A stretch of DNA of 64,000 nt, from contig CANQHV010000007.1 in assembly GCA_947624005.1 (NCBI GenBank), positions 2,059 to 66,058 on the forward strand, given 5' to 3'. The translations under genes and the position numbers were made by a program. Position 1 is the stretch's first letter. Each line of letters starts with the position of its first letter. The notes beneath the pieces are model-generated. The model was not told the origin of the DNA and made no database searches. It saw only the letters and a list, made by a program, of their open reading frames with translations. The stretch comes from an uncultured Clostridia bacterium (GTDB lineage Bacteria > Bacillota > Clostridia > Christensenellales > Borkfalkiaceae). Below are positions 6,162 to 56,724 of the stretch, one piece after another.

Positions 6162-8038
6162 TTGACAATCCTTTTGAACATTTTTTCTATCTGTGTTTTC
6201 GAAAGTTTAACGCAAATCGGTCTGCCGTGCGGACATTTAAGCCCCACGTCGCCTTTAAGCATTCTGAACAGCACGTCTACTTCGAGTTCGGTTAGCTCTT
6301 GCCCGCCCTTCACGGCGTGCTTGCAAGCCGTCATTGCGAGTTTGTCTTTTAAAACGTCTTCAAGCTTGATTGACTTAAACGAATCGACGTTTTTAAGCAC
6401 CTCGTCGAAAAATTCTTTTACGTTCATATCGGCAAGGTCCACGGGCACGGCGTCGATTCTGAACGACGACGGACCGAATTCGCTTACCGTAAAGCCGATT
6501 TTTTCGAAAATCTGTAAGTTTTCGCTTAAAAACAGCTTTTCCTGCGTGTTGACGTCCAAAATATACGGCACAATCAAGCCCTGCTGCATTATCTTGCGCT
6601 TTTTAAGGTTTGCGCGCAGGTTGTCGTATAAAAGTCTTTCGTGCGCGGCGTGCTGGTCGATTAAATATACGTCGTCGCCCATTTCGAATATAAGATACGT
6701 ATTGAAAATACTGCCTTTATACTTGCATTTTTCAAATTCTATAAGCCGACTTTCGTAATCCGCGCGCTGTAAACTTTCGTCGTATTCGCGGCGCGCGCGG
6801 TCAAAGCGGTCGGGAGCGTGCGGACTTTCGCCGAGAACAAGCGACTGAATTTCCTGCGCGGGCAGAAACGACGACAAATTGTCCTCGGCAACGGGATTAT
6901 AATACCACTGCTCTTCCTTTTTTTCGGGTTCAGGTTCGGGCGGCTTGGCGACGGCGTTTTCAGCCGCATAAAGCCGCGGCGCGGTATCGCTTTCGCGCAA
7001 AGTCGAACGCATTTCGGGTATTCTTGTACTGTCGACAACGAAATCCGCGGCTTTCGACGTGCCGTCGAGCACGCTTGACACAATTTTATAAACGGCGCCG
7101 AAAACGGCGTTACCGTCGGTAAAGCGCACGTCGGACTTGTTCGGGTGAACGTTGACGTCAACCATATCTTCGGGCACCGTAACGTTTAAAACGTAAAAAG
7201 GATATTGCCTTTTCATTGCGTAACTTGCGTACGCATTCGAAAGCGCGGTCGCAATGGCGTTGTTTATTATGTAACGCCCGTTTAAAAATACCGATTGATA
7301 GGTTTTATTCGGCTTGAAAAAATTCTGATTGCCTATAAAGCCCTCGACTTTTATTCCGTGCCTTTCCGCGCTTATTTTATAACATTCCGCAAGCGTTTTC
7401 GCGCCGTAAACCTGCGCCAAAGCCTCGTCAAGCCCACCGCCGTACGATTGCAAAGCGAGCTTGCCGTCGATAAAATATCTGAACGAAACCGTGGGATTTC
7501 CCAAAATAAAGCGAGTTACAAAGTTTGTAATGTCGCTTTCTTCTTTTTTGTCGGGCTTTAAAAATTTTGCGCGGACGGGCGTATTGTAAAAAAGGTCGCG
7601 CACGGTTATTACGGTGCCGCGTTCGAGCGCGGCAGGCTGAATTTCGCCCACCTTGTCGTCCTCGACGGTAACTTTGCAAGCCTGATTGCCCGCGGTCACC
7701 GAAACAAGTTCGACGCGCGCGATTACCGAAATGCTCGCAAGCGCTTCGCCTCTGAAACCGAGAGTTTTTACCTTTTCAAGGTCGTCTGCCGACGAAATTT
7801 TACTTGTCGCGTGCGGCAAAAAGGCGGTTTTTAAGTCGCTTTTTTCAATTCCCGAACCGTTATCGACGACTTTTATTAACTGCTTCCCGCCTTTTTCTAT
7901 GTAAATTTTGATTTCGGTCGCGCCCGCGTCAAGACTGTTTTCGACAAGTTCTTTTACCGCGGAATAGGGTCTGTCGATAACCTCGCCCGCCGCAATACGG
8001 TTGTAGACTTCGCGCGAAAGTACGTTTATCTTTCCCAC
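6158..8038 (-). CDS. mutL: DNA mismatch repair protein MutL (endonuclease type)
   Basis: 626 aa with an N-terminal GHKL ATPase (AAGEVIDRP, ELVENSLDAG, GFRGEAL). The C-terminal domain carries the endonuclease motif DQHAAHERLLYD. Confidence 0.95.
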   Translation of the reverse strand: MGKINVLSREVYNRIAAGEVIDRPYSAVKELVENSLDAGATEIKIYIEKGGKQLIKVVDNGSGIEKSDLKTAFLPHATSKISSADDLEKVKTLGFRGEALASISVIARVELVSVTAGNQACKVTVEDDKVGEIQPAALERGTVITVRDLFYNTPVRAKFLKPDKKEESDITNFVTRFILGNPTVSFRYFIDGKLALQSYGGGLDEALAQVYGAKTLAECYKISAERHGIKVEGFIGNQNFFKPNKTYQSVFLNGRYIINNAIATALSNAYASYAMKRQYPFYVLNVTVPEDMVDVNVHPNKSDVRFTDGNAVFGAVYKIVSSVLDGTSKAADFVVDSTRIPEMRSTLRESDTAPRLYAAENAVAKPPEPEPEKKEEQWYYNPVAEDNLSSFLPAQEIQSLVLGESPHAPDRFDRARREYDESLQRADYESRLIEFEKCKYKGSIFNTYLIFEMGDDVYLIDQHAAHERLLYDNLRANLKKRKIMQQGLIVPYILDVNTQEKLFLSENLQIFEKIGFTVSEFGPSSFRIDAVPVDLADMNVKEFFDEVLKNVDSFKSIKLEDVLKDKLAMTACKHAVKGGQELTELEVDVLFRMLKGDVGLKCPHGRPICVKLSKTQIEKMFKRIVN

Positions 8039-15418: not shown

Positions 15419-16546
15419 TTATTCCATAATAGATTTTCTGTTTTTTGCTGTAAAATTGAGTATTTCGGCGGCTTTTTGAACTTCTTCAAGGCTGTTTTCG
15501 GGCGAAAAGCTTATTCTCAATACGCCGTCGGCAACACTTTCGGGCTGTCCGCAAGCGAGAATTACGCGCGAATAACGTTTTTTATCGTTTGACGAACACG
15601 CCGCCCCGTTACCTATTACCAACCCCTTGTCGTCGCACTCGTGCACAAGCGTTTCGCCGCGCAAGCCGACTGCGGAAACGGTCAGAATATACGGCGAGCC
15701 GTTTGCGGGGGAAATTATTCTGAAAACGTTTTTATCAAGACTGTCCGAAAGACGTTTTTTCAACTCGGAAACATACGCGAAAGCTTTATCGAGTATTGCG
15801 TAACGTTTAAGCGCCGCAAATTCGAAATCTTTTATCGCAAAAACATTTTCGGTGCCGCTACGTAAACCGCTTTCTTGCCCGCCGCCGAAAATAAACGGCT
15901 TCAAAACCAAATTTTTACGCTTGAACAGCGCGCCGCAACCTTTTATTCCGCCGATTTTATGCGCGCTGACTGAATACAGGTCGATATTCCTCGAAAGAGT
16001 AAACGCGAATTTTCCGAATGCCTGCACGCCGTCGGAATGAAACAGAGTATACTTATTCTTTGCTTTGACCGCGGCGGCTATTTTGTTGATATCGTTAATT
16101 GCGCCCGTTTCGTTGCTTGCGTGAATTACCGACACCAACGAAGTTTTTTCGTCGATAAGCTTTACAAGTTCGTCCGAATTGACCGAACCATCCCGATTGA
16201 GCGGTGCAAACCGTACGTCCAAACCGCGCTGTTTAAGCTCGTTCGCGGCGGCAAAAATCGCCGAATGTTCGCCGAGCGTCGTAACGACGTTCCCGCGTTT
16301 CCCGCCGCAAAACAACGCTTGATTATCCGCTTCGGTGCCACAAGAAGTAAAAATCAGTCCGAAATTTTCGCTGTCGGCTATTGTAGAGATTATATTTTCT
16401 TTTGCCGAAGCAAGCTCCTTGTGTAAATTATAACCTCCCGCGTACACGGCGGAAGGATTATAATAATCGGTATACAGATATTTTTCGGCCTTTTTCAAAC
16501 ATTCCTCGTCGGGTTTGGTTGTCGCCGCATTATCCAAATATATCAT
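15419..16546 (-). CDS. cysteine desulfurase (NifS/IscS family), ThiI partner
   Basis: 375 aa with MIYLDNAATT, the PLP lysine in SAHKIGG and the catalytic Cys in GNGAACSS. Its ATG overlaps the carB-ORF stop as TGATG. Confidence 0.9.
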   Translation of the reverse strand: MIYLDNAATTKPDEECLKKAEKYLYTDYYNPSAVYAGGYNLHKELASAKENIISTIADSENFGLIFTSCGTEADNQALFCGGKRGNVVTTLGEHSAIFAAANELKQRGLDVRFAPLNRDGSVNSDELVKLIDEKTSLVSVIHASNETGAINDINKIAAAVKAKNKYTLFHSDGVQAFGKFAFTLSRNIDLYSVSAHKIGGIKGCGALFKRKNLVLKPFIFGGGQESGLRSGTENVFAIKDFEFAALKRYAILDKAFAYVSELKKRLSDSLDKNVFRIISPANGSPYILTVSAVGLRGETLVHECDDKGLVIGNGAACSSNDKKRYSRVILACGQPESVADGVLRISFSPENSLEEVQKAAEILNFTAKNRKSIME

Positions 16547-19500
16547 CAGATTTCTATAGAACCCTCGTATGAAAGTTTAACCGTGCCGTCAAGTTCGACT
16601 TCGCCCTGCCCGTTAAGTTTTACAAACAAGTCGCCTCCCTTTAATTTGACGGTTATAATTTCGCCTTTTCTGCAACGCCCGTTCTTTATTGCGGCAACCG
16701 CAACCGCCGCCGCAGCCGTGCCGCAGGAAAGAGTTTCGCCGTTGCCTTTCTCCCATACGCGCATTTTCAACGTCAAATCGTTTACGATTCTCGCAAACTC
16801 GACAAACACTCCGTGCGGGAACTTGCCGCTGTCGGTAATTGCCTGCCCTATCGCCTCGATATCTATATCGTCAACCTTGTCGCAGAAAATCACGCAATGC
16901 GGGTTGCCTACGTTTACAAGCGTAATTTCCTGCTCGGTTTCGCCGAATTTAACGGTTTCTGAGATTACTTCGCCGTCGAAAAGCGCGGGAATTTCTTTCC
17001 CGTCGAATTTAGGCTTACCCAAATTTACCGAAACGGAGCTTGCTTTGCCGTTAAACGAGCTTACGCTTAAAGTTTTAACGCCGCTGCACGTTTCGATTGT
17101 CAGAGTATCGCCTTGCGTCAACCTGTTGTCGTAAAGGTATTTTGCAACGCACCTTACGGGGTTTGCCGCAAAGCCGCCGTCGCTTCCGTCGCGGTTAAAC
17201 ACCCTCATTCCCGCGTCGGCGATATCGGATTTTTCAATCATTACTATTCCGTCGCCGCCGATACCGAAATGTCTGTCTGAAAAGTTTATCGCAAGCGATT
17301 CGGGACAGGTTATCTGATTGTCCATATTGTTGAAGAATATGTAATCGTTGCCGCCCGACTGCATTTTGCTGAATCTTAACTTCAACTTTTCCTTTCTTAA
17401 ATGGTTTATATCGACAAGTTCGGTATTGAATTGGTTGTATCTGCCCGCAATTACGTCGGCAAGCGCGTTTGTCGTATCAAGCGAAGTCAAAACGGTTATG
17501 CCGAGCAAAATCGCGTGATGGTGCAAACTCATATAGTTGGTTATGGACTCGATATCGGTTTTGCCCGTATAAACTATGTAGTCTATCTTGCCCTCGTCCA
17601 TAAGTTTGAAAATTTCGTCGTTTGTGGAAAGCCTTGCAACGTCCGTACACTGCAAGCCGAGGCTTCGTATAACGTTTGCCGTACCCTTTGTAGCGTACAG
17701 TGTAAGACCGAGGTCCGCAAACTTTTTGACGATATTTACGATTTCGAATTTATCCTGATCGTTTATCGTAAAGTAGATGCCCGACGGGTGCTGTTTTGTC
17801 GGGTGCTTCATATTGAATCCCGCCGAAACAAGCCCTTTGAACAACGCCTCTTCTATTGTCTTGCCTATTCCCAGAACTTCGCCCGTGGACTTCATTTCGG
17901 GACCGAGTTGCGAGTTTACATTATTTAACTTTTCAAACGAGAAAACGGGCACTTTTACGGCTACATACGGCGAGTTGGGGTAAAGCCCCGTACCGTAACC
18001 GAGCCTTTTGAGTTTTGCGCCCATAAGAATTTTGGTTGCAAGGTCAACCATCGGCACGCCCGTAACTTTTGAAATATAAGGTATGGTGCGCGAAGCCCTC
18101 GGGTTTACTTCGATAACGTAAAGTTCGTTATGGTAAATAAGGTATTGAATGTTTATAAGTCCCTTTGTTTTAAGCGAAATTGCAAGCTTAATCGAAATAT
18201 CGACAACTTTTTTAAGCATAGCGTCGCTTAAATTATAGGGCGGGTAAACCGCAATCGAGTCGCCGCTGTGTACGCCCGCGCGCTCGATATGCTGCATAAT
18301 TCCGGGTATCAGCACGTCTACGCCGTCGGAAATGGCGTCAACTTCAAGCTCGGTGCCCATAAGGTACTTGTCGCACAGAACGGGGTTTTCAATCTTCTGC
18401 GAAAGAATTACGTCCATATATCTTTCGATATCGTTCTGAGTAAAGGCAATCGTCATATTCTGACCGCCGATAACATACGACGGGCGCAAAAGCACGGGAT
18501 AGCCAAGCGTTTCCGCGGCTTTAACCGCCTCTTCCTTGGTCATTACAGTAAGTCCTTTCGGGCGCGCGATAGCGAACTGTTCCAAAAGTTCGTCAAACCT
18601 TTCTCTGTCCTCCGCAAGGTCGACGCTGTCGGCGGGAGTGCCGAGTATTCTTATACCTTTTTTATCGAGATAAGAACACAGTTTTATTGCCGTCTGACCG
18701 CCGAAAGTTATGACTACGCCGTAAGGTTTTTCGATATCTATTACGTTTTGAACGTCCTCGGGCGTAAGCGCTTCGAAATACAGCCTGTCCGCCGTGTCGA
18801 AGTCGGTTGAAACGGTTTCGGGGTTGTTGTTTATTATTATAACCTCGTAACCAAGACGTTTAAGCGCCCAAACGCAGTGAACGGACGAATAATCGAATTC
18901 GATACCCTGTCCTATTCTTATGGGTCCCGAACCGATAACTATAATTCTGCGCTTTGTACTGCGTTGAACAAAAGGCTTTGCTTCGTCGTGTTCTTTTTCG
19001 TCGTAAGTCGAGTAGAAATAAGGCGTTTGAGCCGAAAATTCCGCGCCGCAGGTATCGACCATTTTAAATACGGCGGAACGTTTTGCGGGCAACTTGTTAC
19101 CCGAAATTTTCGCAAGTTCTTTATCGGGGTAGCCGAGTTTTTTGCCGCGGACGTACTCCTCACGCGAAATCGCTTTGCCCGCGATTTCTTTTTCGTAATT
19201 GACAAGATTGAGAAGTTTATTTAAGAACCATTCATCGATTTTGGTTATTTTATAAATTTCGTCTACGGTTATTCCGCGCTTTAACGCCTGAAAGACCACA
19301 AAAAGCCGTTCGTCCGTAACTTCGTACAGTTTTTCGCGGATTTCGTCGTCGGAAAATTCGGCGATTTTAGGCATATTTAACGTAGCGATTGAAATTTCCG
19401 CCCCGCGGACAGCTTTCATTATTGCCATTTCGAAGCTTGTGCCTATCGCCATAACCTCGCCCGTCGCTTTCATTCTCGTGCCGAGGTCGCGTTTTGCGTA

Positions 19501-20598
19501 AAGGAATTTATCGAAAGGCCATTTGGGAAGCTTTACGACGACATAGTCGAGCGTAGGCTCGAAGCAGGCGTAAGTTTTGCCCGTGACGTCGTTTTTGATT
19601 TCGTCGAGAGTATAGCCGAGCGCGATTTTGGTCGCTACCTTTGCTATCGGGTAGCCCGTAGCCTTTGAAGCGAGCGCGGACGAACGCGATACGCGCGGAT
19701 TGACTTCGATTACGGAATATTCGAACGAATCGGGGTTAAGCGCGAACTGACAGTTGCATCCGCCCTCTATTCCGAGTTCGGTTATTATATCGAGCGACGC
19801 GGTGCGCAGCATCTGATATTCCTTGTCCGAAAGCGTTACGGCGGGCGCGATAACTATCGAATCGCCCGTATGTACGCCGACTGGGTCGAAATTCTCCATC
19901 GAGCAGACGGTCAGAACGTTGCCCGCGCCGTCGCGGAGAACCTCGAACTCGATTTCTTTCCAACCGCCGATATATTTTTCTATCAGAACCTGCGTAATGG
20001 GCGATAAAATCAAACCGTTATGCGCTATAAGCCGCAATTCTTCCTCGGTTTTCGCAACGCCGCCGCCCGCGCCGCCCAAAGTATACGCGGGGCGGACTAT
20101 TACAGGGTACCCTATCTTCTTTGCGATTTCAACGCATTCGTCTACGGTATACGCAATGTCGGACGGAACAACGGGCTGATGGATTTTCTGCATCGTTTCT
20201 TTAAACAGCTCTCTGTCCTCGGCTCGGTCGATTGAATCGAGATTTACGCCGATAAGTTTTACGCCGTGTTCCGCCAAAAAGCCCGATTTCGCAAGCTGAC
20301 AGCCGAGCGTCAGACCCGTCTGACCGCCGAGCGAAGCAAGCACGCTGTCGGGCTTTTCCTTGATTATTATTCTTTTTATGGTGTCAACGGTAAGCGGTTC
20401 GAGATAGATTTCGTCCGCAAGCGCGCTGTCCGTCATAATCGTTGCGGGATTGGAGTTGCAAAGTACGACGTTTACGCCCGCGTCTTTAAGAACGCGGCAC
20501 GCTTGCGCGCCGGCATAATCGAATTCCGCCGCCTGACCTATAACTATCGGACCGGAACCTATAACCAAAACCTTTTTAATATCTTCTCTTTTAGGCAT
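16546..20598 (-). CDS. carB: carbamoyl-phosphate synthase large subunit fused in frame to a C-terminal DapF-like (diaminopimelate epimerase fold) domain
   Basis: 1350-aa uninterrupted ORF. Residues 1 to about 1071 are a complete CarB: two ATP-grasp repeats, an oligomerisation domain and an MGS-like domain ending ..VDINHLRKEK. Residues from about 1072 read LKLRFSKMQSGGNDYIFF..GIGGDG..VGNPHCVIF..WEKGNGETLSCGT.., which matches DapF. Confidence 0.9.
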   Translation of the reverse strand: MPKREDIKKVLVIGSGPIVIGQAAEFDYAGAQACRVLKDAGVNVVLCNSNPATIMTDSALADEIYLEPLTVDTIKRIIIKEKPDSVLASLGGQTGLTLGCQLAKSGFLAEHGVKLIGVNLDSIDRAEDRELFKETMQKIHQPVVPSDIAYTVDECVEIAKKIGYPVIVRPAYTLGGAGGGVAKTEEELRLIAHNGLILSPITQVLIEKYIGGWKEIEFEVLRDGAGNVLTVCSMENFDPVGVHTGDSIVIAPAVTLSDKEYQMLRTASLDIITELGIEGGCNCQFALNPDSFEYSVIEVNPRVSRSSALASKATGYPIAKVATKIALGYTLDEIKNDVTGKTYACFEPTLDYVVVKLPKWPFDKFLYAKRDLGTRMKATGEVMAIGTSFEMAIMKAVRGAEISIATLNMPKIAEFSDDEIREKLYEVTDERLFVVFQALKRGITVDEIYKITKIDEWFLNKLLNLVNYEKEIAGKAISREEYVRGKKLGYPDKELAKISGNKLPAKRSAVFKMVDTCGAEFSAQTPYFYSTYDEKEHDEAKPFVQRSTKRRIIVIGSGPIRIGQGIEFDYSSVHCVWALKRLGYEVIIINNNPETVSTDFDTADRLYFEALTPEDVQNVIDIEKPYGVVITFGGQTAIKLCSYLDKKGIRILGTPADSVDLAEDRERFDELLEQFAIARPKGLTVMTKEEAVKAAETLGYPVLLRPSYVIGGQNMTIAFTQNDIERYMDVILSQKIENPVLCDKYLMGTELEVDAISDGVDVLIPGIMQHIERAGVHSGDSIAVYPPYNLSDAMLKKVVDISIKLAISLKTKGLINIQYLIYHNELYVIEVNPRASRTIPYISKVTGVPMVDLATKILMGAKLKRLGYGTGLYPNSPYVAVKVPVFSFEKLNNVNSQLGPEMKSTGEVLGIGKTIEEALFKGLVSAGFNMKHPTKQHPSGIYFTINDQDKFEIVNIVKKFADLGLTLYATKGTANVIRSLGLQCTDVARLSTNDEIFKLMDEGKIDYIVYTGKTDIESITNYMSLHHHAILLGITVLTSLDTTNALADVIAGRYNQFNTELVDINHLRKEKLKLRFSKMQSGGNDYIFFNNMDNQITCPESLAINFSDRHFGIGGDGIVMIEKSDIADAGMRVFNRDGSDGGFAANPVRCVAKYLYDNRLTQGDTLTIETCSGVKTLSVSSFNGKASSVSVNLGKPKFDGKEIPALFDGEVISETVKFGETEQEITLVNVGNPHCVIFCDKVDDIDIEAIGQAITDSGKFPHGVFVEFARIVNDLTLKMRVWEKGNGETLSCGTAAAAVAVAAIKNGRCRKGEIITVKLKGGDLFVKLNGQGEVELDGTVKLSYEGSIEI
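16549..17385 (-). other. DapF-like domain inside the carB ORF (codons 1072-1350)
   Basis: Aligns by eye to DapF along its whole length. NRDGSDGGFAANPVRCVAKY occupies the position of the canonical N.DGSE...CGNG.RC.AKY, with Ala at 17167..17169 where the catalytic Cys is expected. The second catalytic Cys (ETLSCGT) is retained. Confidence 0.8.
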
Positions 20599-21667
20599 TG
20601 TACTTCCCCTCCTTTATGTTTTTAATGAATTTGTCGAAAAGGAAGGACGCGTCCTGCGGTCCGCCGCACGCTTCGGGGTGGAACTGCACGGTGTAAGCGT
20701 TCAATTCGGGATATTCGAACCCCTCGCAGGTGTTGTCGTTCGCGTTGATATAACTTAATTTGCCCACTCCTTCAAGGCTCGACGATATTACTTCATAGCC
20801 GTGGTTCTGGCTCGATATATACACCCTGCCCGTATCGAGATTTTTAACGGGCTGATTTGCGCCGCGGTGTCCGTATTTCATTTTCTTTGTCTTACCGCCC
20901 ATAGCGAGCGCAAACAGCTGATGTCCGAGGCATATTCCGAAAATCGGAAGCTTGCCCGCAAGTTTTTTGATATTTTCGATAATTCCCACGTTTTCGGCAG
21001 GGTCACCGGGACCGTTTGTAAGCATCAGTCCTTGGGGATTCAACGCAAGAATCTGCTCTGCCGTATAAAAGGACGGCACGCGCATACAGTAGCAACCGCG
21101 TTTTACAAGCTCGCGCGAAATATTGTCTTTCGCGCCGAAATCCCACACCGCTACCCTTAAACCGTTGGGGTCGCCGCTGTACTCGACTTCCGTGCAAGTA
21201 ACGCTGTTTACTGCGTTTACAATACGGTATTTTTTAATCTCGTCGAAATTTTCAAGCGGTTTCGAGGTTATAGCGGCGTTCATAACGCCCGTTTCGCGCA
21301 CGATTTTGGTAAGTTCGCGAGTATCTATGCCGTATAAGCCTATTATCCCTTTTTCTTCGAGATATTTTTCAAGCGTTTTTTCGCATCTGAAATTTGACGG
21401 CTCGTCGCACTTTTCCCTGACGATATAGGCGGAAACCCACGGCTTTTTACTCTCCTGATCGGGAGAAATCATGCCGTAATTGCCTATAAGCGGGAAAGTC
21501 TGCGTAACTATCTGTCCATAATAGCTCGGGTCGGTCAACGTTTCGATATAGCCCGTCATACCCGTGGTAAAAACAAGCTCGCCGACGATTTCACCGTCCG
21601 CGCCGAAACGCTTTCCGACGAATTGCTTTCCGTTTTGCAGTGTTAAATAAGCTCTGCCGTTTTTCAT
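20591..21667 (-). CDS. carA: carbamoyl-phosphate synthase small (glutaminase) subunit
   Basis: Catalytic triad context GICLGHQ and ..HPE... Start taken at MKNGRAYLTL (21667). Overlaps carB by 8 nt. Confidence 0.95.
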   Translation of the reverse strand: MKNGRAYLTLQNGKQFVGKRFGADGEIVGELVFTTGMTGYIETLTDPSYYGQIVTQTFPLIGNYGMISPDQESKKPWVSAYIVREKCDEPSNFRCEKTLEKYLEEKGIIGLYGIDTRELTKIVRETGVMNAAITSKPLENFDEIKKYRIVNAVNSVTCTEVEYSGDPNGLRVAVWDFGAKDNISRELVKRGCYCMRVPSFYTAEQILALNPQGLMLTNGPGDPAENVGIIENIKKLAGKLPIFGICLGHQLFALAMGGKTKKMKYGHRGANQPVKNLDTGRVYISSQNHGYEVISSSLEGVGKLSYINANDNTCEGFEYPELNAYTVQFHPEACGGPQDASFLFDKFIKNIKEGKYNA

Positions 21668-21688
21668 AGTAAGTATCAATCCTCGAAA

Positions 21689-22591
21689 TTATTTTAAAAG
21701 TTTAACCATTACGGCCTTTTGCGCGTGAAGTCTGTTTTCCGCCTCGTCGAAAATTTCTTTCGCGTGCGCTTCGAAAACTCCCTCAGTTATCTCTTCTCCG
21801 CGGTGCGCGGGCAGACAGTGCATAACCATAACGTCGTCTTTTGCCGCTTTTATGTTCTTTTCGTTTACCTGATAACCGACAAACGCGTGCTCGCGTTCGT
21901 TCTTTTCTTTCTCCATACCCATCGAAGCCCAGACGTCGGTATAGATTACGTCCGCGCCTTCAAGCGCCTCTTCGACACTTTCGGTTATTTTGAAATCGCC
22001 GTTCGCCGCCGCCCATTCCGAAATTCCCTTGTCGGGTTCGTAACCTTTCGGGCAGGCGATTGTGTAAGACATTTCAAGTTTGATTGCGCCGACCGCAAGG
22101 CTGTTTGCCATATTGTTGCCGTCGCCGATAAACGCCATTTTAAGCCCCTTGAAACTGCCCTTGTATTCGCGGATTGTCATAAGGTCGGCAAGTACCTGAC
22201 AAGGGTGCGCATAGTCGGTAAGACCGTTGATTACGGGGATAGAGCCGTATTTTGCAAGGTCTTCTACTTCTTTTTGGGCAAAAGTACGTATCATTATACC
22301 GTCGAGATAGCGCGAAAGCACGCGGGCGGTATCCTGAACGGGCTCGCCTCTGCCTATCTGCAAATCGTTGCTCGAAAGGAAAAGACCGTATCCGCCGAGT
22401 TCGAAAATGCCCGCCTCGAAAGAAACGCGCGTGCGCGTTGACGCTTTCTGGAAAATCATTCCCAACTTTTTCCCTTCAAGATACTTCTTTATAATACCGT
22501 TGTTGCGTTCGAATTTAAGTTGGTCCGCAAGGTTTAAAATCGAAAGAATATCCTCGCGCGACAAATCCGAAAGTTTTAATAAATGTTTCAT
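21689..22591 (-). CDS. argF: ornithine carbamoyltransferase
   Basis: 300 aa with STRTR, the HPCQ context and HCLPAHRGEE. Confidence 0.95.
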   Translation of the reverse strand: MKHLLKLSDLSREDILSILNLADQLKFERNNGIIKKYLEGKKLGMIFQKASTRTRVSFEAGIFELGGYGLFLSSNDLQIGRGEPVQDTARVLSRYLDGIMIRTFAQKEVEDLAKYGSIPVINGLTDYAHPCQVLADLMTIREYKGSFKGLKMAFIGDGNNMANSLAVGAIKLEMSYTIACPKGYEPDKGISEWAAANGDFKITESVEEALEGADVIYTDVWASMGMEKEKNEREHAFVGYQVNEKNIKAAKDDVMVMHCLPAHRGEEITEGVFEAHAKEIFDEAENRLHAQKAVMVKLLK

Positions 22592-23754
22592 TCAGAAATC
22601 ACCTCATTCAAAATTTTCAAAGCCTCGTCCATTTCGGGTTTGGTTATAATCAACGGCGGCAAAAGCCTTACCCTTTTATGCGCCGTCAGAACTATAAGTC
22701 CTCTGTCGAGGCATTTCTGCGCAATCTCGCGCGCAGGTTTGGTCGTGCCTATACCTATCATAAGCCCCTTACCCGTAACTTCCGTAACGTTTTTGATACG
22801 TTTGATATTTTCGGTAAGGTATGCGCCTTTCCCCTGCACTTCAAGCAAAAGCGCGTCGTCTATACGGTTTATTATACTGTAAGCTCCCGCGCAAGCCACG
22901 GGGTTGCCGCCGAAAGTCGAACCGTGGTCGCCCGCCGAAAGCGTATATTCGGTTTTACCGAACATCATACACGCGCCAATCGGAAGCCCGCCGCCGAGCG
23001 CTTTCGCCGTCGTAACGATATCGGGTTCAAGACCGTAAGCCATATAAGAATACAGATACCCCGTTCTGCCGTTGCCCGTCTGCACTTCGTCTATAATCAA
23101 AAGAATATCGCGTTCTTTACAGAATTTTTCAAGATTTTTCAGAAAATCTCCGTCGAGAACATTCACTCCGCTTTCGCCCTGAATTGTTTCAACCATAACG
23201 GCGCAGGTTTTATCGGTATAACACTTTAATATGCCGTCCATAGTCGGCTCGGCGTATTTAAAGCCGTCCACAAAAGGCGCAAACTTTGTATGGAAAGCGT
23301 CTTGCCCCGTCGCTGAAAGAGTCGCAATGGTTCTGCCGTGGAAGGATTCTTTCAACGTGATTATTTCGTATCTTCCCTCGCCGTATTTGTCGTAAGAATA
23401 CTTGCGCGCGGTCTTTATAGCGCATTCGTTGGCTTCGGCTCCGCTGTTCGAAAAGAAAACCTTTTTCGCGCCCGTGCGCTCGCACAGTAGTTTTGCAAGT
23501 TTTACCTGCGGTTCGGCATAATAAAGGTTGCAAACGTGCTGAATACGGTTGATTTGTTCCACAACCGCGTCTTTCCACTCTTCGTCGTTTATTCCGAAAG
23601 CGTTTACGCCTATGCCCGTGGCAAAGTCCAGATACTTTTTGCCGTCCGAACCTATAAGCGTGCAACCGTTTCCGTCGGTTATCGCGACGTTGAAACGCGC
23701 GTAAGTATTTGCAACGTACAATTTATCGTCTGTAAATATATCAATTTTGCCCAT
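22588..23754 (-). CDS. argD: acetylornithine aminotransferase
   Basis: 388 aa class-III aminotransferase with SNSGAEANE, DEVQTG and the PLP lysine in TTAKALGGG. ATGA overlap with argF. Confidence 0.9.
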   Translation of the reverse strand: MGKIDIFTDDKLYVANTYARFNVAITDGNGCTLIGSDGKKYLDFATGIGVNAFGINDEEWKDAVVEQINRIQHVCNLYYAEPQVKLAKLLCERTGAKKVFFSNSGAEANECAIKTARKYSYDKYGEGRYEIITLKESFHGRTIATLSATGQDAFHTKFAPFVDGFKYAEPTMDGILKCYTDKTCAVMVETIQGESGVNVLDGDFLKNLEKFCKERDILLIIDEVQTGNGRTGYLYSYMAYGLEPDIVTTAKALGGGLPIGACMMFGKTEYTLSAGDHGSTFGGNPVACAGAYSIINRIDDALLLEVQGKGAYLTENIKRIKNVTEVTGKGLMIGIGTTKPAREIAQKCLDRGLIVLTAHKRVRLLPPLIITKPEMDEALKILNEVISE

Positions 23755-23771
23755 TAAAGCACCTCTTTACT

Positions 23772-23803
23772 AAAAGAAAGACTGATTAAAAAATTAATCA
23801 GTC
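23772..23803 (-). terminator. A+T-rich hairpin plus U-tract inside the arg operon (argB/argD junction); possible partial terminator
   Basis: On the minus-strand RNA: GACUGAUUAA-UUUU-UUAAUCAGUC, a perfect 10-bp stem (23780..23789 with 23794..23803), followed by UUUCUUUU and then the argD RBS AAAGAGG. Confidence 0.4.
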
Positions 23804-23805
23804 AA

Positions 23806-24651
23806 TCAAAGGAACATCGTTCCGCTGCCCTCGTCGGATAATATTTCAACTAAAATGGAATGGGAAACCCTGCCGTCCGTGATAAACACTTTTTTCACGC
23901 CGCGACGTATTGCTTCTTTGCAACATTCTATTTTCGGAATCATACCGCCTGAAATAATTCCCTGTTTTATAAGCGCAGGTATATCGGAAACGTATACCTT
24001 TTTGATAAGACTGTCGGGGTCGTCCTTGTTCTCCATAAGACCTTTTATATCGGTCATAAGTATAAGACCCTCTGCGTCAAGCGCACCTGCGATTGCCGCC
24101 GCCGCAGTGTCCGCATTAACGTTATAAATATTTCCGTCGTCGTCGCAACCGACCGTGGAAATGACGGGGATATAGCCCTTATCGAGTAAATCGATAATTA
24201 TCTGCGGGTCGATACGGGTGACTTTTCCCACAAAGCCGAGGGCTTCGTCCTGCTTTTCGCATTGAAGAAAATGCCCGTCCTGTCCGCAGATACCGATTGC
24301 TTTTCCCTCGTTTCTTTCAAGAAGGTCAACAAGCGATTTGTTTACTTTACCCGCAAGCACCATTCTTACTATTTCCGCCGTTTCTTCGTCGGTATATCTT
24401 AAACCGTTGACGAATTTCGACTCTTTGCCCATCTTTTTAAGCGTGTCGGAAATCTCGGGACCGCCGCCGTGAACAAGCACGACTTTGATTCCGAGCAAAC
24501 GGAGCGCGACGAGATCGCGCATTACGGACGATTTCAATTTTTCGTCTATCATAGCGTTCCCGCCGTATTTTACGACAAGTATTTTATTGAAATATTTTTT
24601 AATATAAGGTATTGCCTCTATTAAAAATTCGGCTTGTTCTATCTGATCCAT
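23806..24651 (-). CDS. argB: acetylglutamate kinase
   Basis: 281 aa with VVKYGGNAM, VLVHGGGP and the amino-acid kinase fold. Confidence 0.95.
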   Translation of the reverse strand: MDQIEQAEFLIEAIPYIKKYFNKILVVKYGGNAMIDEKLKSSVMRDLVALRLLGIKVVLVHGGGPEISDTLKKMGKESKFVNGLRYTDEETAEIVRMVLAGKVNKSLVDLLERNEGKAIGICGQDGHFLQCEKQDEALGFVGKVTRIDPQIIIDLLDKGYIPVISTVGCDDDGNIYNVNADTAAAAIAGALDAEGLILMTDIKGLMENKDDPDSLIKKVYVSDIPALIKQGIISGGMIPKIECCKEAIRRGVKKVFITDGRVSHSILVEILSDEGSGTMFL

Positions 24652-25869
24652 TTAAGTTCTGTAATCTCCGTTGATTTTTACGTAGTCGTAAGTCAAATCG
24701 CAACCCCACGCCGCCGCTTTGCACGCGCCGAGTTTTAAGTCGATATTAATTTTGATTTCGTCTTCCGATAAAAGCTTTTTTGCAAAATCTTCGTCGAAAT
24801 CCACGCCGTAACCGTCGCGGCAGACAAGAAGTTTGCCGACTTTCGAGGCGAACTCGACGTCAATAGATAAGGGATTGATTTTTTCGCCCGAATAACCTAT
24901 TGCGCACAGCACCCTGCCCCAATTGGCGTCGGCGCCGAACATCGCCGCCTTTACAAGCGAGGATTTTATTACCGTTTTTGCGACGGTTTTAGCCATTTTA
25001 ACGGTTTTTGCGCCGCGAACGTTACATTCAATAAGCTTTGTCGCACCCTCGCCGTCTTTTGCAATCATTTTCGAAAGTTTGACGGAGCAATGACGGAGCG
25101 CACGGCAGAAAGCCTTGAAATCTTTGCCGTCCTTTGTTATTTTTTCATTCCCAGCAAGCCCGTTTGCCATAATACAGCAAGTATCGTTCGTCGATTGGTC
25201 GCCGTCCACGCTTACCATATTGAACGACGATTTAACATCGGCGGAAAGAGCCGCGCGAAGCATTTCGGGGCTTATCGCCACGTCGCTTGTAAAAAATATC
25301 AGATTTGTCGCCATATTCGGACAAACCATACCGACGCCCTTCGCTATGCCGCCTATTCTGCACTTCACGCCGTTCAAATCAAACTCGACCGCAACCGACT
25401 TTTTAACCGTATCGGTTGTCATTATAGCCTCGTTCGCGTCCTCGGAGTTATTGCCGAGCGCGGCGTAAAGTCCGTCTATGCCCTGTTCCATCGGGTCGAG
25501 GGTCATTTTCATACCGATAACGCCCGTGGAAGCGACAATTACGTCCTCGGCTTTAATGCCGCTTACCCTTTCGACAAGCGCACACATACCCTCGGCAAGC
25601 TCGATACCGTTGGAATTGCAGGTATTGGCATTGCCGCTGTTGCAAATTATAGCCTGCGCCACGCCGTTTTCGAGGTTGCGTTTGGTAACCACAACGGGCG
25701 CGCCCTTTACAAGGTTGCTTGTATAAACGCCCGCAGCCGAAGCTTTGACTTCGCTGACAATAAGCGCAAGGTCTTTTTTTGTTCTGTTTTTTCTCAAACC
25801 GCAGTGAATCCCCGCGGCTTTGAAACCTTTGGGTGCGCAAACGCCGCCCGAAATTTCAATTATACTCAT
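24652..25869 (-). CDS. argJ: bifunctional ornithine acetyltransferase / N-acetylglutamate synthase
   Basis: 405 aa with the autoprocessing site context CPNMATN and the C-terminal ..DLTYDYVKINGDYRT. Confidence 0.95.
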   Translation of the reverse strand: MSIIEISGGVCAPKGFKAAGIHCGLRKNRTKKDLALIVSEVKASAAGVYTSNLVKGAPVVVTKRNLENGVAQAIICNSGNANTCNSNGIELAEGMCALVERVSGIKAEDVIVASTGVIGMKMTLDPMEQGIDGLYAALGNNSEDANEAIMTTDTVKKSVAVEFDLNGVKCRIGGIAKGVGMVCPNMATNLIFFTSDVAISPEMLRAALSADVKSSFNMVSVDGDQSTNDTCCIMANGLAGNEKITKDGKDFKAFCRALRHCSVKLSKMIAKDGEGATKLIECNVRGAKTVKMAKTVAKTVIKSSLVKAAMFGADANWGRVLCAIGYSGEKINPLSIDVEFASKVGKLLVCRDGYGVDFDEDFAKKLLSEDEIKINIDLKLGACKAAAWGCDLTYDYVKINGDYRT

Positions 25870-25875
25870 TTCTTC

Positions 25876-26808
25876 CTAAATCAGCGAATAAGTTTCGTCC
25901 AGACCGAGCATTATGTTCATATTCTGAACAGCCGCGCCCGAAGCCCCCTTTCCGAGGTTGTCCAAAACGCTTGCCATAAAAATCTGCTCGTCGTTTCCGC
26001 TGACGTAAATTTTCAGATAGTTGGTTCCCGCAAGTTCGTTGGCGGGTATAAATGCGGGAGTATCGTCTTCGGAAGCCACTTTTATAAAATTCTGCGACGC
26101 ATAGTACTCTGCAAAATACTCTCTTATCGATTTTACGTCGTATTTTTTAGCCAAAAGCTTCCTGTAAACGGGTACGGTAACGCACATTCCGCAATAGAAA
26201 TCGCAAATTTCGGGAATGAACAAGGGCTTTACGGAAAGCCCGCATTCCTTTACCATTTCGGGCAAATGCTTATGCGAAAGAGTTACGGCATACTGCCTCG
26301 GCGAATCCAACGCCTTATCCCGTTCGGTATTTTCATAGACCGCAATGGTCTTTTTGCCTGCGCCCGAATACCCAGAAACGCCGTGCGCCGCAAACGGATA
26401 GTCAGGCGCAGCTATACCGCCTTTGACAAGCGGAGCGACAAGCGATATAAAACCCGTCGCATAGCACCCGGGGTTAGCCACCCGCTTCGCCTTTGATATG
26501 CGTTCTCTCCTTTCCCGTGAAAGTTCGGGAAGCCCGTATACCCAATCGTGGTCTGTTCTGTGAGCCGTCGAAGCGTCTATTACGCGCACGTCGGGATTAT
26601 CTATAAGCGAAACAGCCTCTTTTGCGGCGGCGTCGGGAAGACACAAAAAGCAAATATCGGCAGAATTCAGGCATTTTTTTCTGAATTCGGGAATTTTTCG
26701 CTGTTCTTCGGGAAGGGTTATGATATTTACGTCGCCGCGCTTTTCAAGCCGTTCGTAAATCTGTAAACCCGTCGTACCCTCTTTCCCGTCTATAAAAACG
26801 TTGTACAT
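25876..26808 (-). CDS. argC: N-acetyl-gamma-glutamyl-phosphate reductase (short type)
   Basis: 310 aa with the catalytic Cys in NPGCYAT and the C-terminal DNLGKGASGAAVQNMN. Confidence 0.93.
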   Translation of the reverse strand: MYNVFIDGKEGTTGLQIYERLEKRGDVNIITLPEEQRKIPEFRKKCLNSADICFLCLPDAAAKEAVSLIDNPDVRVIDASTAHRTDHDWVYGLPELSRERRERISKAKRVANPGCYATGFISLVAPLVKGGIAAPDYPFAAHGVSGYSGAGKKTIAVYENTERDKALDSPRQYAVTLSHKHLPEMVKECGLSVKPLFIPEICDFYCGMCVTVPVYRKLLAKKYDVKSIREYFAEYYASQNFIKVASEDDTPAFIPANELAGTNYLKIYVSGNDEQIFMASVLDNLGKGASGAAVQNMNIMLGLDETYSLI

Positions 26809-28028
26809 TATTTTAATTTTTTGCTGTCGAGAAGAGCCTTAACCTTGATGGGAAGTCCGAAAAGATTTATAAAGCCCTGCGAATCCATCTGATTATAGCA
26901 ATCGTCCTCGCCGAACGTCGCGATATCTTCGCTGTACAGCGAATACGGCGACGTGATACCGGCATTAATTACGTTACCCTTGTAAATTTTAAGTTTTACG
27001 TCGCCCGTCACGGTTTCCTGCGTTTTATTCACAAACGCGTCCAAAGCTTCGCGAAGAGGCGTAAACCACTGTCCGTCGTAAACCATTTCTCCGTACTTTA
27101 CGGCGATAAGCTGTTTATAATGTTGAGTAGCCTTATCGAGGCAAATCGATTCGAGAAGTTCGTGCGCGGCATACAAAATCGTACCGCCGGGCGTTTCGTA
27201 TACGCCCCTCGACTTCATTCCGACAAGTCTGTTTTCAACGAGGTCAACAAGACCTACGCCGTTTGCGCCGCCGACTTCGTTGAGTTTGCCGATAAGCGAA
27301 ACGCTATCCATCTTTTTGCCGTCGATAGCCGTCGGGATTCCCTTTTCAAAGCTGATTGTAATGTAAGTTGCCTTATCGGGAGCTTTCCACGGCGACACGC
27401 CAAGCTCGCAGATTTTATCGTAGTCGGGTTCGTTGGCGGGATTTTCGAGGTCAAGCCCTTCGTGCGACAGGTGCCAAAGGTTCTTGTCTTTGGAATAGTT
27501 GGTTTCCCTGTTTATTTTAAGGGGAATGTTATGCGCTTCGGCATAGTCAATCTCTTCGTCGCGGCTCTTTATTTTCCAGATACGCCAAGGGGCGATAATC
27601 TGCATTTCGGGAGCAAACGCCTTGATTGTAAGTTCGAAACGGACCTGGTCGTTACCTTTGCCCGTGCAACCGTGGCAAATCGCGTCCGCGCCCTCCTTTT
27701 TGGCGATTTCGACTATTCTTTTCGCGATTATGGGGCGCGCGAAAGAAGTGCCGAGAAGATACTTGTTCTCGTAAACCGCGCCCGCTTTCATCGTGGGGTA
27801 AATATAATCTTCGATAAATTCTTTTTTAAGGTCGAGAACGTAAAGCTTCGACGCCCCCGTCTTAATCGCCTTTTCTTCAAGCCCGTCAAGCTCCGTCGTC
27901 TGACCGACATCGCCCGAAACAGCGATAACTTCGCAGTTATCGTAGTTTTCTTTAAGCCAAGGTATGATAATCGATGTGTCAAGTCCGCCCGAATAGGCAA
28001 GGACTACTTTTTTGATTTTCTTTTCCAA
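26808..28028 (-). CDS. argG: argininosuccinate synthase
   Basis: 406 aa with AYSGGLDTS and [14 protein letters not shown]. Apparent TTG start 7 nt after AAGGA. Its TAA stop overlaps the argC ATG as TAATG. Confidence 0.95.
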
Positions 28029-55287: not shown

Positions 55288-56724
55288 TCAGCTTATAATC
55301 TTTTTTATTACCGTATTGTCATCGTAACTGTGTTTTATACCCATTATCTCCTGATAATGTTCTCCGCCTTTGCCCGCGACAAGAAGAATATCCCCCTCGC
55401 CAAGCATTCTTATGGCGTATTCGGTAGCCGTATCGCGTTCGGTAACCGTAACGTAATCCACGCCCTTATCCTTTACCCCCTGCTCGATTTCGCAGATTAT
55501 ATCGTAAGGGTCTTCGTACCTCGGATTGTCCGACGTGATAATAATAAAATCGGCATATTTGGCGGCGACTTCGCCCATTATGGGGCGTTTGGTCTTATCT
55601 CTGTTCCCGCCGCACCCGAAAAGGCAATAAAGCTTACCCTTGCATAGTTTTTTCAACGCTTGCAGACTTTTTTCCAAGCCATCGGGCGTATGCGCGAAAT
55701 CCACGAAAATCTGCCCGCCGTTGTACGTCGCCGAGCGTTCAAGACGTCCCGAAACCTTTTCGAGCGAAGCAAGTCCGTTTGCTATAAACTCGGTTTTTAT
55801 TCCCGCCGCTTTTGCCGCGGCCGCCGCGCCCATCGCGTTATAAACGTTGTGGCGGGCGGGGAGTTTCAGGTTTATTTCGTATAGCTCGTCAAACAGGTTT
55901 ATCACAAACGAACTGCCGTCTATTCTTTCGTCGATATCCACCGCAAACACGTCGGCGGGGTTTTCCAAACCGTAACTTATTGCGTTATTCAGTTCGCCAT
56001 ACAGACTTTTACCGAGGTTGTCGTCGGAATTGAGAACAGCATAGCGGCATCTGCCGTTTTTGAAAAGCAACCGCTTGCTTTTGGAATATTCCTCCATACC
56101 GTTGAAAAAATCGAGGTGGTCCTGCGTACAGTTTGTAAGTATGCCAACTTCAAACGAAAGCCCGCCAATTTTGTCGTAATACAGCGCGTGGGCAGAGGCT
56201 TCCATAAATACCCATTCCACTCCCGCGGCAACCATATCCGCAAATACGCTGTGCATATACACGGGGTCGGGCGTAGTCAGCTCGGGCGCGATAAATCTGC
56301 CGCCGTACGTTATCCCCAACGTGCCTATTATCCCCGTTTTTTTGCCGGCGGCGCGGAAAATACTGTCAAGCATATAGGTTGTCGTCGTTTTGCCGTTGGT
56401 GCCCGTGACCGCTATAAGTTTAAGCTTTTTATCGGCGAAGCCGTAAAACGCGCGCGCGGCGGGCGCAATCTGCTCTCTTCCGCTTTTTACTATTATTTGC
56501 GGCAGTTTGCAGTTTAATTCCCGTTCGCATACGATTGCGGCGGCTCCGCCGTCAACTATTTCGTCTATAACGGAGTGCGTGTCGAATTTTCCGCCTTCGT
56601 AGCAAATAAACAAATCGCCCGATTTTACTTTTCTGCTATCCGTGCATACGCCGCTTATCTCGACGTCGGTCATACCGATTGTCTTTTCGTAACGTAAGTT
56701 TTTTACAATCGTTTCAAGTTTCAT
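55288..56724 (-). CDS. murE: UDP-N-acetylmuramoyl-L-alanyl-D-glutamate--2,6-diaminopimelate ligase
   Basis: 478 aa with GTNGKTTTT and the DNPR motif (SDNPRYEDP) associated with meso-DAP specificity. Confidence 0.93.
   Translation of the reverse strand: MKLETIVKNLRYEKTIGMTDVEISGVCTDSRKVKSGDLFICYEGGKFDTHSVIDEIVDGGAAAIVCERELNCKLPQIIVKSGREQIAPAARAFYGFADKKLKLIAVTGTNGKTTTTYMLDSIFRAAGKKTGIIGTLGITYGGRFIAPELTTPDPVYMHSVFADMVAAGVEWVFMEASAHALYYDKIGGLSFEVGILTNCTQDHLDFFNGMEEYSKSKRLLFKNGRCRYAVLNSDDNLGKSLYGELNNAISYGLENPADVFAVDIDERIDGSSFVINLFDELYEINLKLPARHNVYNAMGAAAAAKAAGIKTEFIANGLASLEKVSGRLERSATYNGGQIFVDFAHTPDGLEKSLQALKKLCKGKLYCLFGCGGNRDKTKRPIMGEVAAKYADFIIITSDNPRYEDPYDIICEIEQGVKDKGVDYVTVTERDTATEYAIRMLGEGDILLVAGKGGEHYQEIMGIKHSYDDNTVIKKIIS

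Follow-up and report, generated by a model that had tools for sequence, protein, structure and literature searches.

A DapF-type domain without the first catalytic cysteine at the end of the carbamoyl-phosphate synthetase large subunit in uncultured Clostridia

The fusion gene and its DapF-type domain

The stretch of DNA studied here, referred to as the window, comprises 64,000 nucleotides of contig CANQHV010000007.1 from an uncultured Clostridia bacterium. On its minus strand lies a gene in which carB, encoding the large subunit of carbamoyl-phosphate synthetase (CPSase), runs on into a domain of the type of the diaminopimelate (DAP) epimerase DapF. The gene closes a complete arginine operon, argG-argC-argJ-argB-argD-argF-carA-carB::dapF-like. 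The attached domain has lost the first of the two catalytic cysteines of DapF and may now serve as an accessory or regulatory module of CPSase. According to the open reading frames listed for the window, the gene is a single uninterrupted frame of 1350 codons plus a TGA stop. Its parts are as follows, with the evidence in brackets.

16546..20598, minus strand: fusion gene carB::dapF-like (open reading frame list, profile matches, identical protein on 7 contigs)
17386..20598, minus strand: CarB portion, residues 1-1071 (NF003671, TIGR01369, Pfam CPSase_L_D1/D2/D3 and MGS)
17488..17745, minus strand: core of the MGS-like allosteric domain, residues 952-1037, directly before the linker (PF02142, 41.7 bits)
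17386..17448, minus strand: C-terminal tail of CarB and linker, residues 1051-1071, ..NQFNTELVDINHLRKEK (conserved letters, predicted flexible)
17383..17385, minus strand: TTG codon of Leu1072, standing where the ancestral DapF initiator would have been (CTG, TTA, TTA and CTC in the related loci L005, L006, L009 and L010)
16549..17385, minus strand: DapF-type domain, residues 1072-1350, complete and including both sub-domains (TIGR00652, 2otn and structure model)

Residues 1-1071 are, as judged from profile matches, an ordinary full-length CarB with two ATP-grasp halves, an oligomerisation domain and an MGS-like allosteric domain, for which all Pfam domains were found. The profile NF003671 matched residues 1-1051 with 1441 bits (cutoff 599) and TIGR01369 scored 1407 bits. 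The additional 279 residues form a true domain of DapF fold. TIGR00652 matched residues 1075-1348 with 233 bits in the whole protein and 238.5 bits in the tail alone (cutoff 114.65), the tail covering profile positions 2-268 of 270. PF01678 (DAP_epimerase) matched the tail twice (155 bits), with two repeats as in genuine DapFs, and alignment to sequences of the Protein Data Bank gave E = 6e-60 for the crystal sequence of Bacillus anthracis DapF, 2otn. The AlphaFold2 (AF2) model of residues 891-1350 had a mean predicted local distance difference test (pLDDT) score of 82.7, with values mostly of 85-97 in the DapF part and about 85-90 in the MGS-like core. When this model was compared with crystal structures of DapF by Foldseek, the template modelling score normalised to the target, TM(target), was 0.86-0.89 for 2otn, 8qzy, 9mro and 5ha4; lower-scoring matches were PhzF and the dehydratase of trans-3-hydroxy-L-proline (T3LHyp). 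An earlier note, written from the letters of the window alone, had described a carB frame of 1350 codons that enters a DapF domain without a stop. The reading frame and the profile matches confirm this description, all coordinates and motifs given in the note proved right, residues ~1072-1350 fall into the DapF family above the curated cutoff, and the comparison of the structure model bears out the DapF fold.

The DNA of the junction (17344..17427) reads ..NTELVDINHLRKEK followed directly by LKLRFSKMQSGGND.., and both a stop codon and a frameshift are absent. The junction motif NTELVDIN is kept in all fusions. The TTG codon and the AAAGGAAAAG before it, both pointed out in the earlier note, are present in the DNA. 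Their interpretation as start signals did not hold up, since the closest relatives have no conserved start codon here and the stretch of purines encodes Lys-Glu-Lys; a working internal TTG start with a Shine-Dalgarno sequence was therefore rejected. The position of Leu1072 plausibly marks the ancestral start of DapF, given that Met stands exactly there in several fusions that retain the cysteine (ATG at this codon in L022, L027, L035 and L064).

Positions within the DapF-type domain are given on the numbering of Haemophilus influenzae DapF, whose catalytic positions agree with the 2otn alignment; residue numbers above 1000 refer to the window protein. The segment DGSDGGFAANPVRCVAKY was aligned opposite DGSEGKSCGNGLRCVAKY of 2otn, with 'dgsdggFAANPvrcvaky' against 'dgsegkSCGNGlrcvaky', and ETLSCGTAAAA was aligned opposite VTQACGTGACA. 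Ala1144 (GCG, 17167..17169) occupies the position of Cys73, the first catalytic cysteine. The absence of the first thiol and the retention of the second, in a CGTA instead of a CGTG turn, were thus correctly read in the earlier note, and the alignment offered no Cys at the first position. The helix-cap glycines are replaced as well (G74 by Ala, G76 by Pro and G220 by Ala). The motifs concerned, including two outside the catalytic site, are listed below.

17158..17172, minus strand: FAANP in place of the SCGNG catalytic turn (alignment to 2otn and relatives)
16714..16725, minus strand: CGTA, with the second catalytic cysteine kept as Cys1292 (TGC, 16723..16725), equivalent to Cys217, and G220 changed to Ala (2otn alignment)
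16897..16908, minus strand: GNPH motif with the equivalents of N157 and H159, kept (family alignment)
16804..16806, minus strand: Phe1265 at the position of Asn190 (F or Y in 100% of the window subgroup, N in 100% elsewhere)
16747..16752, minus strand: Glu1283-Lys1284 at the positions of Glu208-Arg209, with R209 changed to Lys (family alignment)
17296..17313, minus strand: ITCPES motif, residues 1096-1101 (near-invariant polar set found only in the Cys73-less clade)
16567..16569, minus strand: Tyr1344 at the position of Tyr268 of Escherichia coli DapF (Y or F in all groups)

In inhibitor complexes of the H. influenzae enzyme, the distal L-centre of DAP is bound by N64, N157, N190 and R209. The window protein has the first two of these, and N190 and R209 are changed to F1265 and K1284, which goes beyond the earlier note. 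Binding of DAP by the window protein is doubtful because of N190F, R209K and the replacement of the three helix-cap glycines. DapF loses its epimerase activity when Cys is mutated to Ala. Because Cys73 is gone and the distal-carboxylate site has been rebuilt in the window subgroup, normal function as a two-base DAP epimerase seems very unlikely. A compensating thiol at position 9 ('KMQSCGND') was considered and ruled out, as Cys is found at this position in canonical stand-alone relatives too and the window carries Gly. Judging by the succession of strands and helices, ITCPES and E51 (tail numbering) are probably located at the end of sub-domain I that is distant from the catalytic cleft, with ITCPES at the start of the outer helix.

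Distribution, order of events and selection

An identical protein of 1350 aa was found on 7 contigs that had been assembled independently (ENA, Logan and NCBI). Relatives' loci are cited here by L numbers and proteins by P numbers. Of the best 80 loci in reference genomes with one genome per species, about 50 carry a single CarB::DapF frame of ~1342-1450 aa, among them L026 and L044, which are isolates, and L038, a closed HiFi chromosome; the isolate genomes with the fusion are those of Ruminococcaceae AM07-15 and Neglectibacter caecimuris. The nearest relatives of the window are metagenome-assembled genomes (MAGs) of uncultured Clostridia or Christensenellales type, for example L005 with 75% identity and L010 from Ca. 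Coproplasma avicola. The ~100 best-ranking relatives of the tail in the database, most of which end at contig boundaries, consist of a CarB C-terminus and DapF with the same junction motif and have Ala or Gly at the position of Cys73; Ala, Gly or Ser occupies it in ~149 related sequences. A protein library clustered at 50% was uninformative for this census as the fusions collapse into CarB clusters. The architecture that the earlier note proposed to look for in other genomes is thus widespread, and its suggestion of a local read-through after recent loss of the stop codon upstream of dapF has to be given up, since the fusion is ancient and occurs in at least ~50 reference species.

Some fusions were found in MAGs labelled as other groups than Clostridia, i.e., L020 (Selenomonadaceae), L043 and L053 (Treponema) and L046 (Spirochaetaceae); this points to a horizontally transferred fused gene or to mis-binning. 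The carB of L001 (NCBI MAG GCA_949300505.1), and also that of L002, has one in-frame TGA, at 9953-9955 in L001, at a conserved Gly codon ('KKIGY*TGLYPNSPY' against 'RLGYGTGLYPNSPY' in the window; asterisks stand for stops), and the L001 gene was called as two proteins of 868 aa and 467 aa (MGS and DapF). This TGA could be a nonsense mutation, an error, or a case of recoding or read-through. A recurrent in-frame TGA splitting carB was considered and rejected, as P0021/L089 shows a frame disruption different from the TGA of L001.

As judged from the sequences, the fusion is old, and fusion and loss of the thiol are separate events. CGNG, CGTG and all DAP ligands are kept in the fusions L022, L023, L026, L029, L036-L039, L042, L049, L058 and L064. 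The order of events was read from a neighbour-joining tree of DapF domains, in which free-standing canonical DapFs are basal, fusions retaining the cysteine come next, and one large nested clade lacks Cys73 and has Ala, Gly, Ser or Thr in its place. The most derived tip of this clade is the 'AANP / F190 / K209 / CGTA' group, formed by the window, L005, L006, L009, L010 and ~30 metagenomic proteins. The comparative data suggest that a free-standing dapF in a glutamine-amidotransferase cluster was joined to the 3' end of carB, and that the early fusion had both catalytic cysteines and was presumably bifunctional. One large lineage, now found in arginine operons, would then have exchanged Cys73 for Ala, Gly or Ser, and the pocket of the window sub-lineage would have been remodelled further (G74A, G76P, G220A, N190F/Y and R209K).

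Cys73 is kept in 34 of the 34 free-standing DapFs sampled; the stand-alone loci were fetched via a pattern containing Cys217, and only their Cys73 statistics are unbiased. Nearly all losses of Cys73 fall in copies fused or adjacent to carB and seem to have arisen independently in several lineages. An exception is formed only by P0102 (L090, 2103-2942), a canonical-looking gene with AGNC in an ANTAR-dapF context and the sole truly free-standing gene without Cys73. Three other genes first seemed to be of this kind and were discarded: L091 is in fact fused, and L087 and L088 are secondary splits of the fusion. In L087 (4850-5060, P0075) the linker contains one in-frame TAG ('ASRYN*QNTENVDIN'). 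In L088 (1-894, P0046) a shortened carB ends with 'DIIADLEQALG*' and a separate Cys-less DapF-like gene begins 10 nt later. Separate degeneration was seen in L047, which lacks Cys217, and in the fused copy of L050, which lacks both Cys and His159. Cys73 is also missing from L043, L046 and L053, all labelled as Spirochaetes, which do not have the other markers of the clade, including the ITCPES-type residues. Cys at position 76 occurs in 11 sequences, the 'AGNC' variants with Ala73 and Cys76 (P0102, P0055, P0068, P0077, P0078, P0083, P0092, P0099, P0107, P0115 and L018), and in some lineages the catalytic thiol may have shifted by one helical turn.

The domain was retained essentially at full length in every lineage examined and in ~149 sequences, the shortest one (L035) ending ~25 residues early, and the Cys-less fusions of dozens of species, with 50-75% identity, contain no internal stops. 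As dS, the synonymous divergence, was near saturation, the nonsynonymous divergence (dN) was compared between regions of the same gene. The ratio of dN in the DapF domain to dN in the catalytic part of CarB was 3.7-4.6 in the window subgroup, 3.2 for the 'AGN' pair L008-L011 and 1.5-2.3 in fusions retaining the cysteine. Between the window and L005, dN/dS was 0.16 in the DapF-like part and 0.04 in CarB. The domain evolves about 4x faster than CarB. The constraint on the DapF-like part is relaxed about two-fold, and it is clearly still under purifying selection.

Within the domain, conservation is still highest in the pocket, with a mean column entropy of 0.41 for 16 pocket columns against 1.05 for the whole domain. 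Among the 149 sequences without Cys73, 145 retain Cys217 and 148 retain His159. In the 'AGN' group (107 sequences), N64, N75, N157, H159, N190, E208, R209 and T219 are each 97-100% conserved. In about 25% of this group N11 is changed to Asp (e.g., P0049, P0052, P0057, P0084 and P0091, with QGTGDD or GSGDD), and Asp at this substrate-binding position puts a carboxylate near the site of action of the missing thiol. In the 'AANP' group (36 sequences), which includes the window, several replacements are fixed (F/Y190 100%, K209 86%, A74 97%, P76 89% and A220 94%) and other positions are eroding (P158 56%, E208 61%, N157 81%, and also G210, E180, T99 and C79). Even so, N11, N64, N75, E213, G218 and T219 are 94-100% conserved in it. 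Polar positions that are newly near-invariant in the Cys-less groups only are ITCPES, E51, R199, T245, K247 and D252 (tail numbering); T26, C27 and S30 of ITCPES are 79-100% conserved there and variable in stand-alone DapFs and in fused ones retaining the cysteine. Since these residues are conserved neither in Cys-retaining fusions nor in free-standing DapFs, they track the loss of the thiol and not the fusion. In L013, L014 and L015 the equivalents of K954 and K993 of CarB are replaced and the CarB allosteric domains of these species share only 46-50% identity; the attached DapF-like domain is better conserved than this allosteric domain.

The neighbouring genes of the window that bear on the subject are as follows.

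20591..21679, minus strand: carA, CPSase small subunit, overlapping the start of carB by 8 nt (20591-20598)
21689..28028, minus strand: argF, argD, argB, argJ, argC and argG, the upstream rest of the arginine operon (same order in L001 and L002)
15419..16546, minus strand: nifS-like gene for a class-V aminotransferase, whose ATG shares one base with the TGA of the fusion (TGATG, 16544-16548)
55288..56724, minus strand: murE, with DNPR at residue 399 (55519..55530)

The gene argF lies upstream of carA in ~20 of 32 Cys-less fusions against 0 of 18 fusions retaining the cysteine. The latter adjoin an ANTAR regulator and pyrG, nadE or purF, e.g., ANTAR-carA-carB::dapF-pyrG in L022, nadE downstream in L026 and purF nearby in L038. 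Canonical free-standing dapF genes stand in the orders glnA-ANTAR-dapF-guaA (L003) and GXGXG-ANTAR-dapF (L090), and the ancestral context appears to be a nitrogen/glutamine-amidotransferase cluster. Such a cluster is an unexpected regulatory surrounding for dapF, a gene of lysine and cell-wall synthesis. A nifS-like gene downstream of the fusion was found only in L005-L011 among the relatives' loci; a functional tie to the translationally coupled nifS-thiI genes was therefore dismissed, the linkage being limited to the immediate lineage of the window. Among the nucleotide-effector ligands of E. coli CarB, K954, T974 and T977 are kept in the window and K993 is changed to Arg; Val stands at the position of E892, which we take to be an ornithine ligand in E. 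coli CarB. Near the dcw cluster, a 258-aa protein of the Asp/Glu racemase family (60696-61472, minus strand), with a fold of two-thiol racemases independent of pyridoxal phosphate, is probably MurI.

The DNPR motif of MurE, also noted earlier and found at the position given above, is associated with MurE enzymes that add meso-DAP. Neither a second dapF nor dap, lys or ddh genes were found in the 64-kb window, ~10 kb of left flank and a 5.4-kb right contig. In two relatives the fused domain stands beside a canonical enzyme. The N. caecimuris isolate L044 has the fusion at 2989-7071 and a canonical free-standing dapF at 8841-9716, 1.8 kb downstream. The Acutalibacter MAG L050 has the fused copy at 4276-6171 and a canonical dapF immediately downstream (6822-7703); this fused copy, with the motifs MSASGIRC, GNPS and TAGGAS, has lost both Cys and His159 and is still full length. 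The fused domain can thus coexist with the canonical enzyme and is probably dispensable for epimerisation in L044 and L050. Previous work also documented non-homologous DAP epimerases (DapF2) in Firmicutes and normal growth of E. coli without dapF, and so other routes to meso-DAP exist (10.1101/2024.10.14.618325). Growth complementation of an E. coli dapF mutant, which the earlier note had proposed, would be a weak test for this reason, as that mutant has no growth defect (10.1101/2024.10.14.618325).

Possible roles of the attached domain

The reading favoured here, which we give about an even chance of being right, is that the last 279 codons encode a DapF-derived, non-epimerase accessory or regulatory module of the arginine-operon CPSase, kept under selection. 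The domain would hang on a flexible linker of ~20 residues straight after the MGS-like allosteric domain of CarB and would hold a conserved pocket for small molecules, containing one thiol (Cys1292) and His1234, plus the acquired invariant polar residues. It would most likely bind a small ligand of amino-acid type without turnover, and a DapF-style motion between open and closed forms, dimerisation beside the dimer interface of the regulatory domain, or both, could modulate the activity or assembly of CPSase. We infer both the sensing of a ligand and the effect on CPSase. A retained and changed function tied to CarB, rather than junk, is suggested because losses of the cysteine fall almost all in fused or carB-adjacent copies, because the domain coexists with a canonical dapF where this could be observed, because its full length is under purifying selection, and because the pocket is conserved with fixed replacements and newly invariant polar residues. 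Previous studies showed that (alpha-beta)2 dimers of E. coli CPSase form via the regulatory domains (PMC6245113), that DapF of E. coli has a non-catalytic, protein-binding regulatory role with RppH, and that Tyr268, an aromatic of its dimer interface, is needed for dimerisation (PMC6061791). The aromatic kept at the Tyr268 position in all groups favours regulation linked to dimerisation.

On the other hand, several points weigh against a regulatory module. The AF2 model of the MGS and DapF segment gave no confident docking of the domain on CarB (predicted template modelling score 0.67; pLDDT ~60 in the linker, residues ~1051-1070), and there is no evident physiological logic that would tie DAP-like ligands to the CPSase of the arginine pathway. 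Were the fused domain the sole DapF homologue of this genome, whose MurE carries the meso-DAP-type motif, one would expect it to have some epimerase activity. The loss of this activity would follow from the known two-base mechanism and the behaviour of mutants. The statistics by group lack phylogenetic independence, and dS is close to saturation. Moreover, the near-invariance of Cys217 and His159 exceeds the obvious needs of ligand binding and fits one-base catalysis.

An enzyme with one base and a changed substrate is the main rival to the regulatory module, although we consider it rather unlikely. Here Cys1292 together with His1234 would move a single proton, in an elimination or dehydration, a stereospecific exchange or an isomerisation. 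Besides the retention of Cys217 and His159 in the counts given above, it is favoured by the restriction of position 73 to the small residues A, G and S, by pocket substitutions that are fixed and not random, by the six residues (N11, N64, N75, E213, G218 and T219) kept at 94-100% in the window subgroup, and by the new invariant Cys, Glu, Arg, Lys and Asp that arise together with the loss of the thiol. The lower-scoring Foldseek matches to PhzF and T3LHyp dehydratase point the same way, and Cys-Thr and Ser-Cys types among proline-racemase-like enzymes provide a precedent (PMC3958920). However, E208 (61%), G210, P158 (56%) and N157 (81%) are eroding in the window subgroup, and dN is roughly double the value seen in Cys-retaining fusions, which one would not expect of a new active site with precise tuning. 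The arginine operon shows neither an evident candidate substrate nor an evident need of a pathway, and the full-length fused domain of L050 without both Cys and His159 means that at least some lineages keep the domain for a reason other than catalysis. The earlier note had named both a pseudoenzyme or ligand-binding module and a one-base enzyme; both proposals are still live, and the canonical two-base epimerase is very unlikely given the missing first thiol.

That the domain is still the DAP epimerase of the cell, with the base provided by water in the cavity at Ala or by a relocated thiol (Cys1098 in ITCPES, or Cys76 elsewhere), is improbable. The meso-DAP-type DNPR of MurE and the lack of a second dapF in the window, its left flank and the 5.4-kb right contig would agree with it, as would the conservation of every DAP ligand at 97-100% in the 'AGN' group. 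The free-standing Ala73/Cys76 gene L090/P0102 in the usual dapF context and the 11 Cys76 sequences suggest that a move of the thiol is tolerable, and a near-invariant new Cys (ITCPES) appears exactly in the Cys-less clade. Yet the window has Pro76 and not Cys, N190F and R209K have occurred with the three helix-cap glycines replaced, ITCPES probably lies far from the cleft, and Cys-to-Ala mutants of DapF are inactive. Other routes to meso-DAP, as mentioned, are documented (10.1101/2024.10.14.618325).

Still less probable is a functionless relic, or at most a passive structural appendage, whose deletion is pending. The domain evolves faster than the CarB part, several canonical invariants are eroded and the L050 copy is thoroughly degenerate. 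Against this stand the retention of the domain in all Cys-less fusions, over dozens of species at 50-75% identity with no internal stops, the dN/dS of ~0.16, the pocket columns being the most conserved with new invariant residues gained, and the better conservation of the DapF-like domain than of the CarB allosteric domain in L013-L015.

A sequencing or assembly artefact (missed stop, frameshift or compensating homopolymer indels) as the source of the fusion or of the Cys-to-Ala change can practically be discounted: the shifted frame does read ..tgc ggc aa.. (Cys-Gly), hinting at paired 1-nt indels in T and A runs, but the 7 identical contigs and the family-wide Ala, Gly or Ser at position 73 in ~149 relatives rule out such an origin of FAANP, AANP is fixed in the window subgroup, and the fusion is also present in isolates and a closed HiFi chromosome.

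Known systems and significance

The window domain shares with canonical DapF (TIGR00652 / PF01678; 2otn, 1gqz and 9mro) the two-domain fold, a full-length profile match, Cys217, His159, N11, N64, N75, N157, E208, the GNPH and GET.CGT motifs and the aromatic of the dimer interface. It differs in the Ala for Cys73, the replaced glycines 74, 76 and 220, the changes of N190 to Phe and R209 to Lys, the attachment to CarB, the faster evolution and the new invariant polar residues. Residues 1-1071 resemble E. coli CarB (1jdb/1bxr) in being encoded next to carA and in largely keeping the effector phosphate ligands (K954, T974 and T977; K993 is Arg), and the window protein differs from it in the additional 279-residue domain after the allosteric domain and in the Val at E892. 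The Cys-retaining fusions of Ruminococcus-like genomes (L022, L026, L038 and L039, among others) have the same architecture and the NTELVDIN junction and are likely the ancestral state; they differ in CGNG, CGTG and all DAP ligands, which would make them presumably bifunctional, in the lack of ITCPES-type residues and in their position outside arginine operons.

Disabled paralogues of enzymes can become regulatory modules, as with HisZ, a separate pseudoenzyme regulatory subunit derived from a tRNA synthetase. Among proline-racemase-like enzymes, Cys-Cys racemases and epimerases, Cys-Thr T3LHyp dehydratases and a Ser-Cys type of unknown function are distinguished, and a change of Thr to Cys turns the dehydratase into an epimerase (PMC3958920). 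Like the window domain, T3LHyp dehydratase has one of the two symmetric catalytic Cys replaced and the other conserved, and it performs one-base chemistry rather than being a dead protein. On the other hand, it belongs to another family of the superfamily, has Thr as the replacement, is free-standing and has a known substrate and pathway. The window protein had no match to the Pro_racemase profile in the Pfam scan, and the likeness to this dehydratase is mechanistic only. In the E. coli DapF-RppH system (PMC4227774, PMC6061791), the DapF fold, dimeric via Tyr268, binds another enzyme and stabilises its conformation independently of epimerase chemistry; unlike the fused domain, that DapF is a fully active epimerase and a polypeptide of its own, with a partner that has no relation to CPSase. 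Eukaryotic CAD (PMC8442968) shows that CPSase tolerates large C-terminal fusions, although there the partners are enzymes of the same pathway and all are active.

Our literature searches found no paper on a CarB-DapF fusion, on a bacterial CarB with such an appendage or on a DapF-derived pseudoenzyme. It is possible, though we hold it only tentatively, that the CarB-attached domains without Cys73 (~150 sequences from dozens of species of gut Clostridia) form an unrecognised class. They would be either a ligand-gated allosteric module, responding to a DAP-like signal in 'AGN' and to something else in 'AANP', or a new family of one-thiol enzymes of DapF fold. Other multi-domain proteins with DapF were also seen, with DapF C-terminal in P0166, P0179 and P0223 (~687-692 aa), a 693-aa frame in L079 (5978-8059), and further architectures in P0240 (742 aa), P0200 (1046 aa) and P0252 (776 aa, DapF N-terminal).

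The fusion proteins are named 'diaminopimelate epimerase, partial' or 'carB' by database pipelines, and metabolic reconstructions may wrongly credit the DapF step or miss the need for another route to meso-DAP. CPSase is a textbook allosteric enzyme, and a conserved extra domain at its regulatory end in many abundant Clostridia of gut and rumen would imply an undescribed mode of regulation or assembly. All the intermediates are still alive, i.e., the free enzyme, the bifunctional fusion, the loss of one thiol with an intact pocket and the remodelling of the pocket. The family therefore provides a clean natural experiment in the evolution of an enzyme into a pseudoenzyme, or into a new enzyme, and the hypothesis is directly testable.

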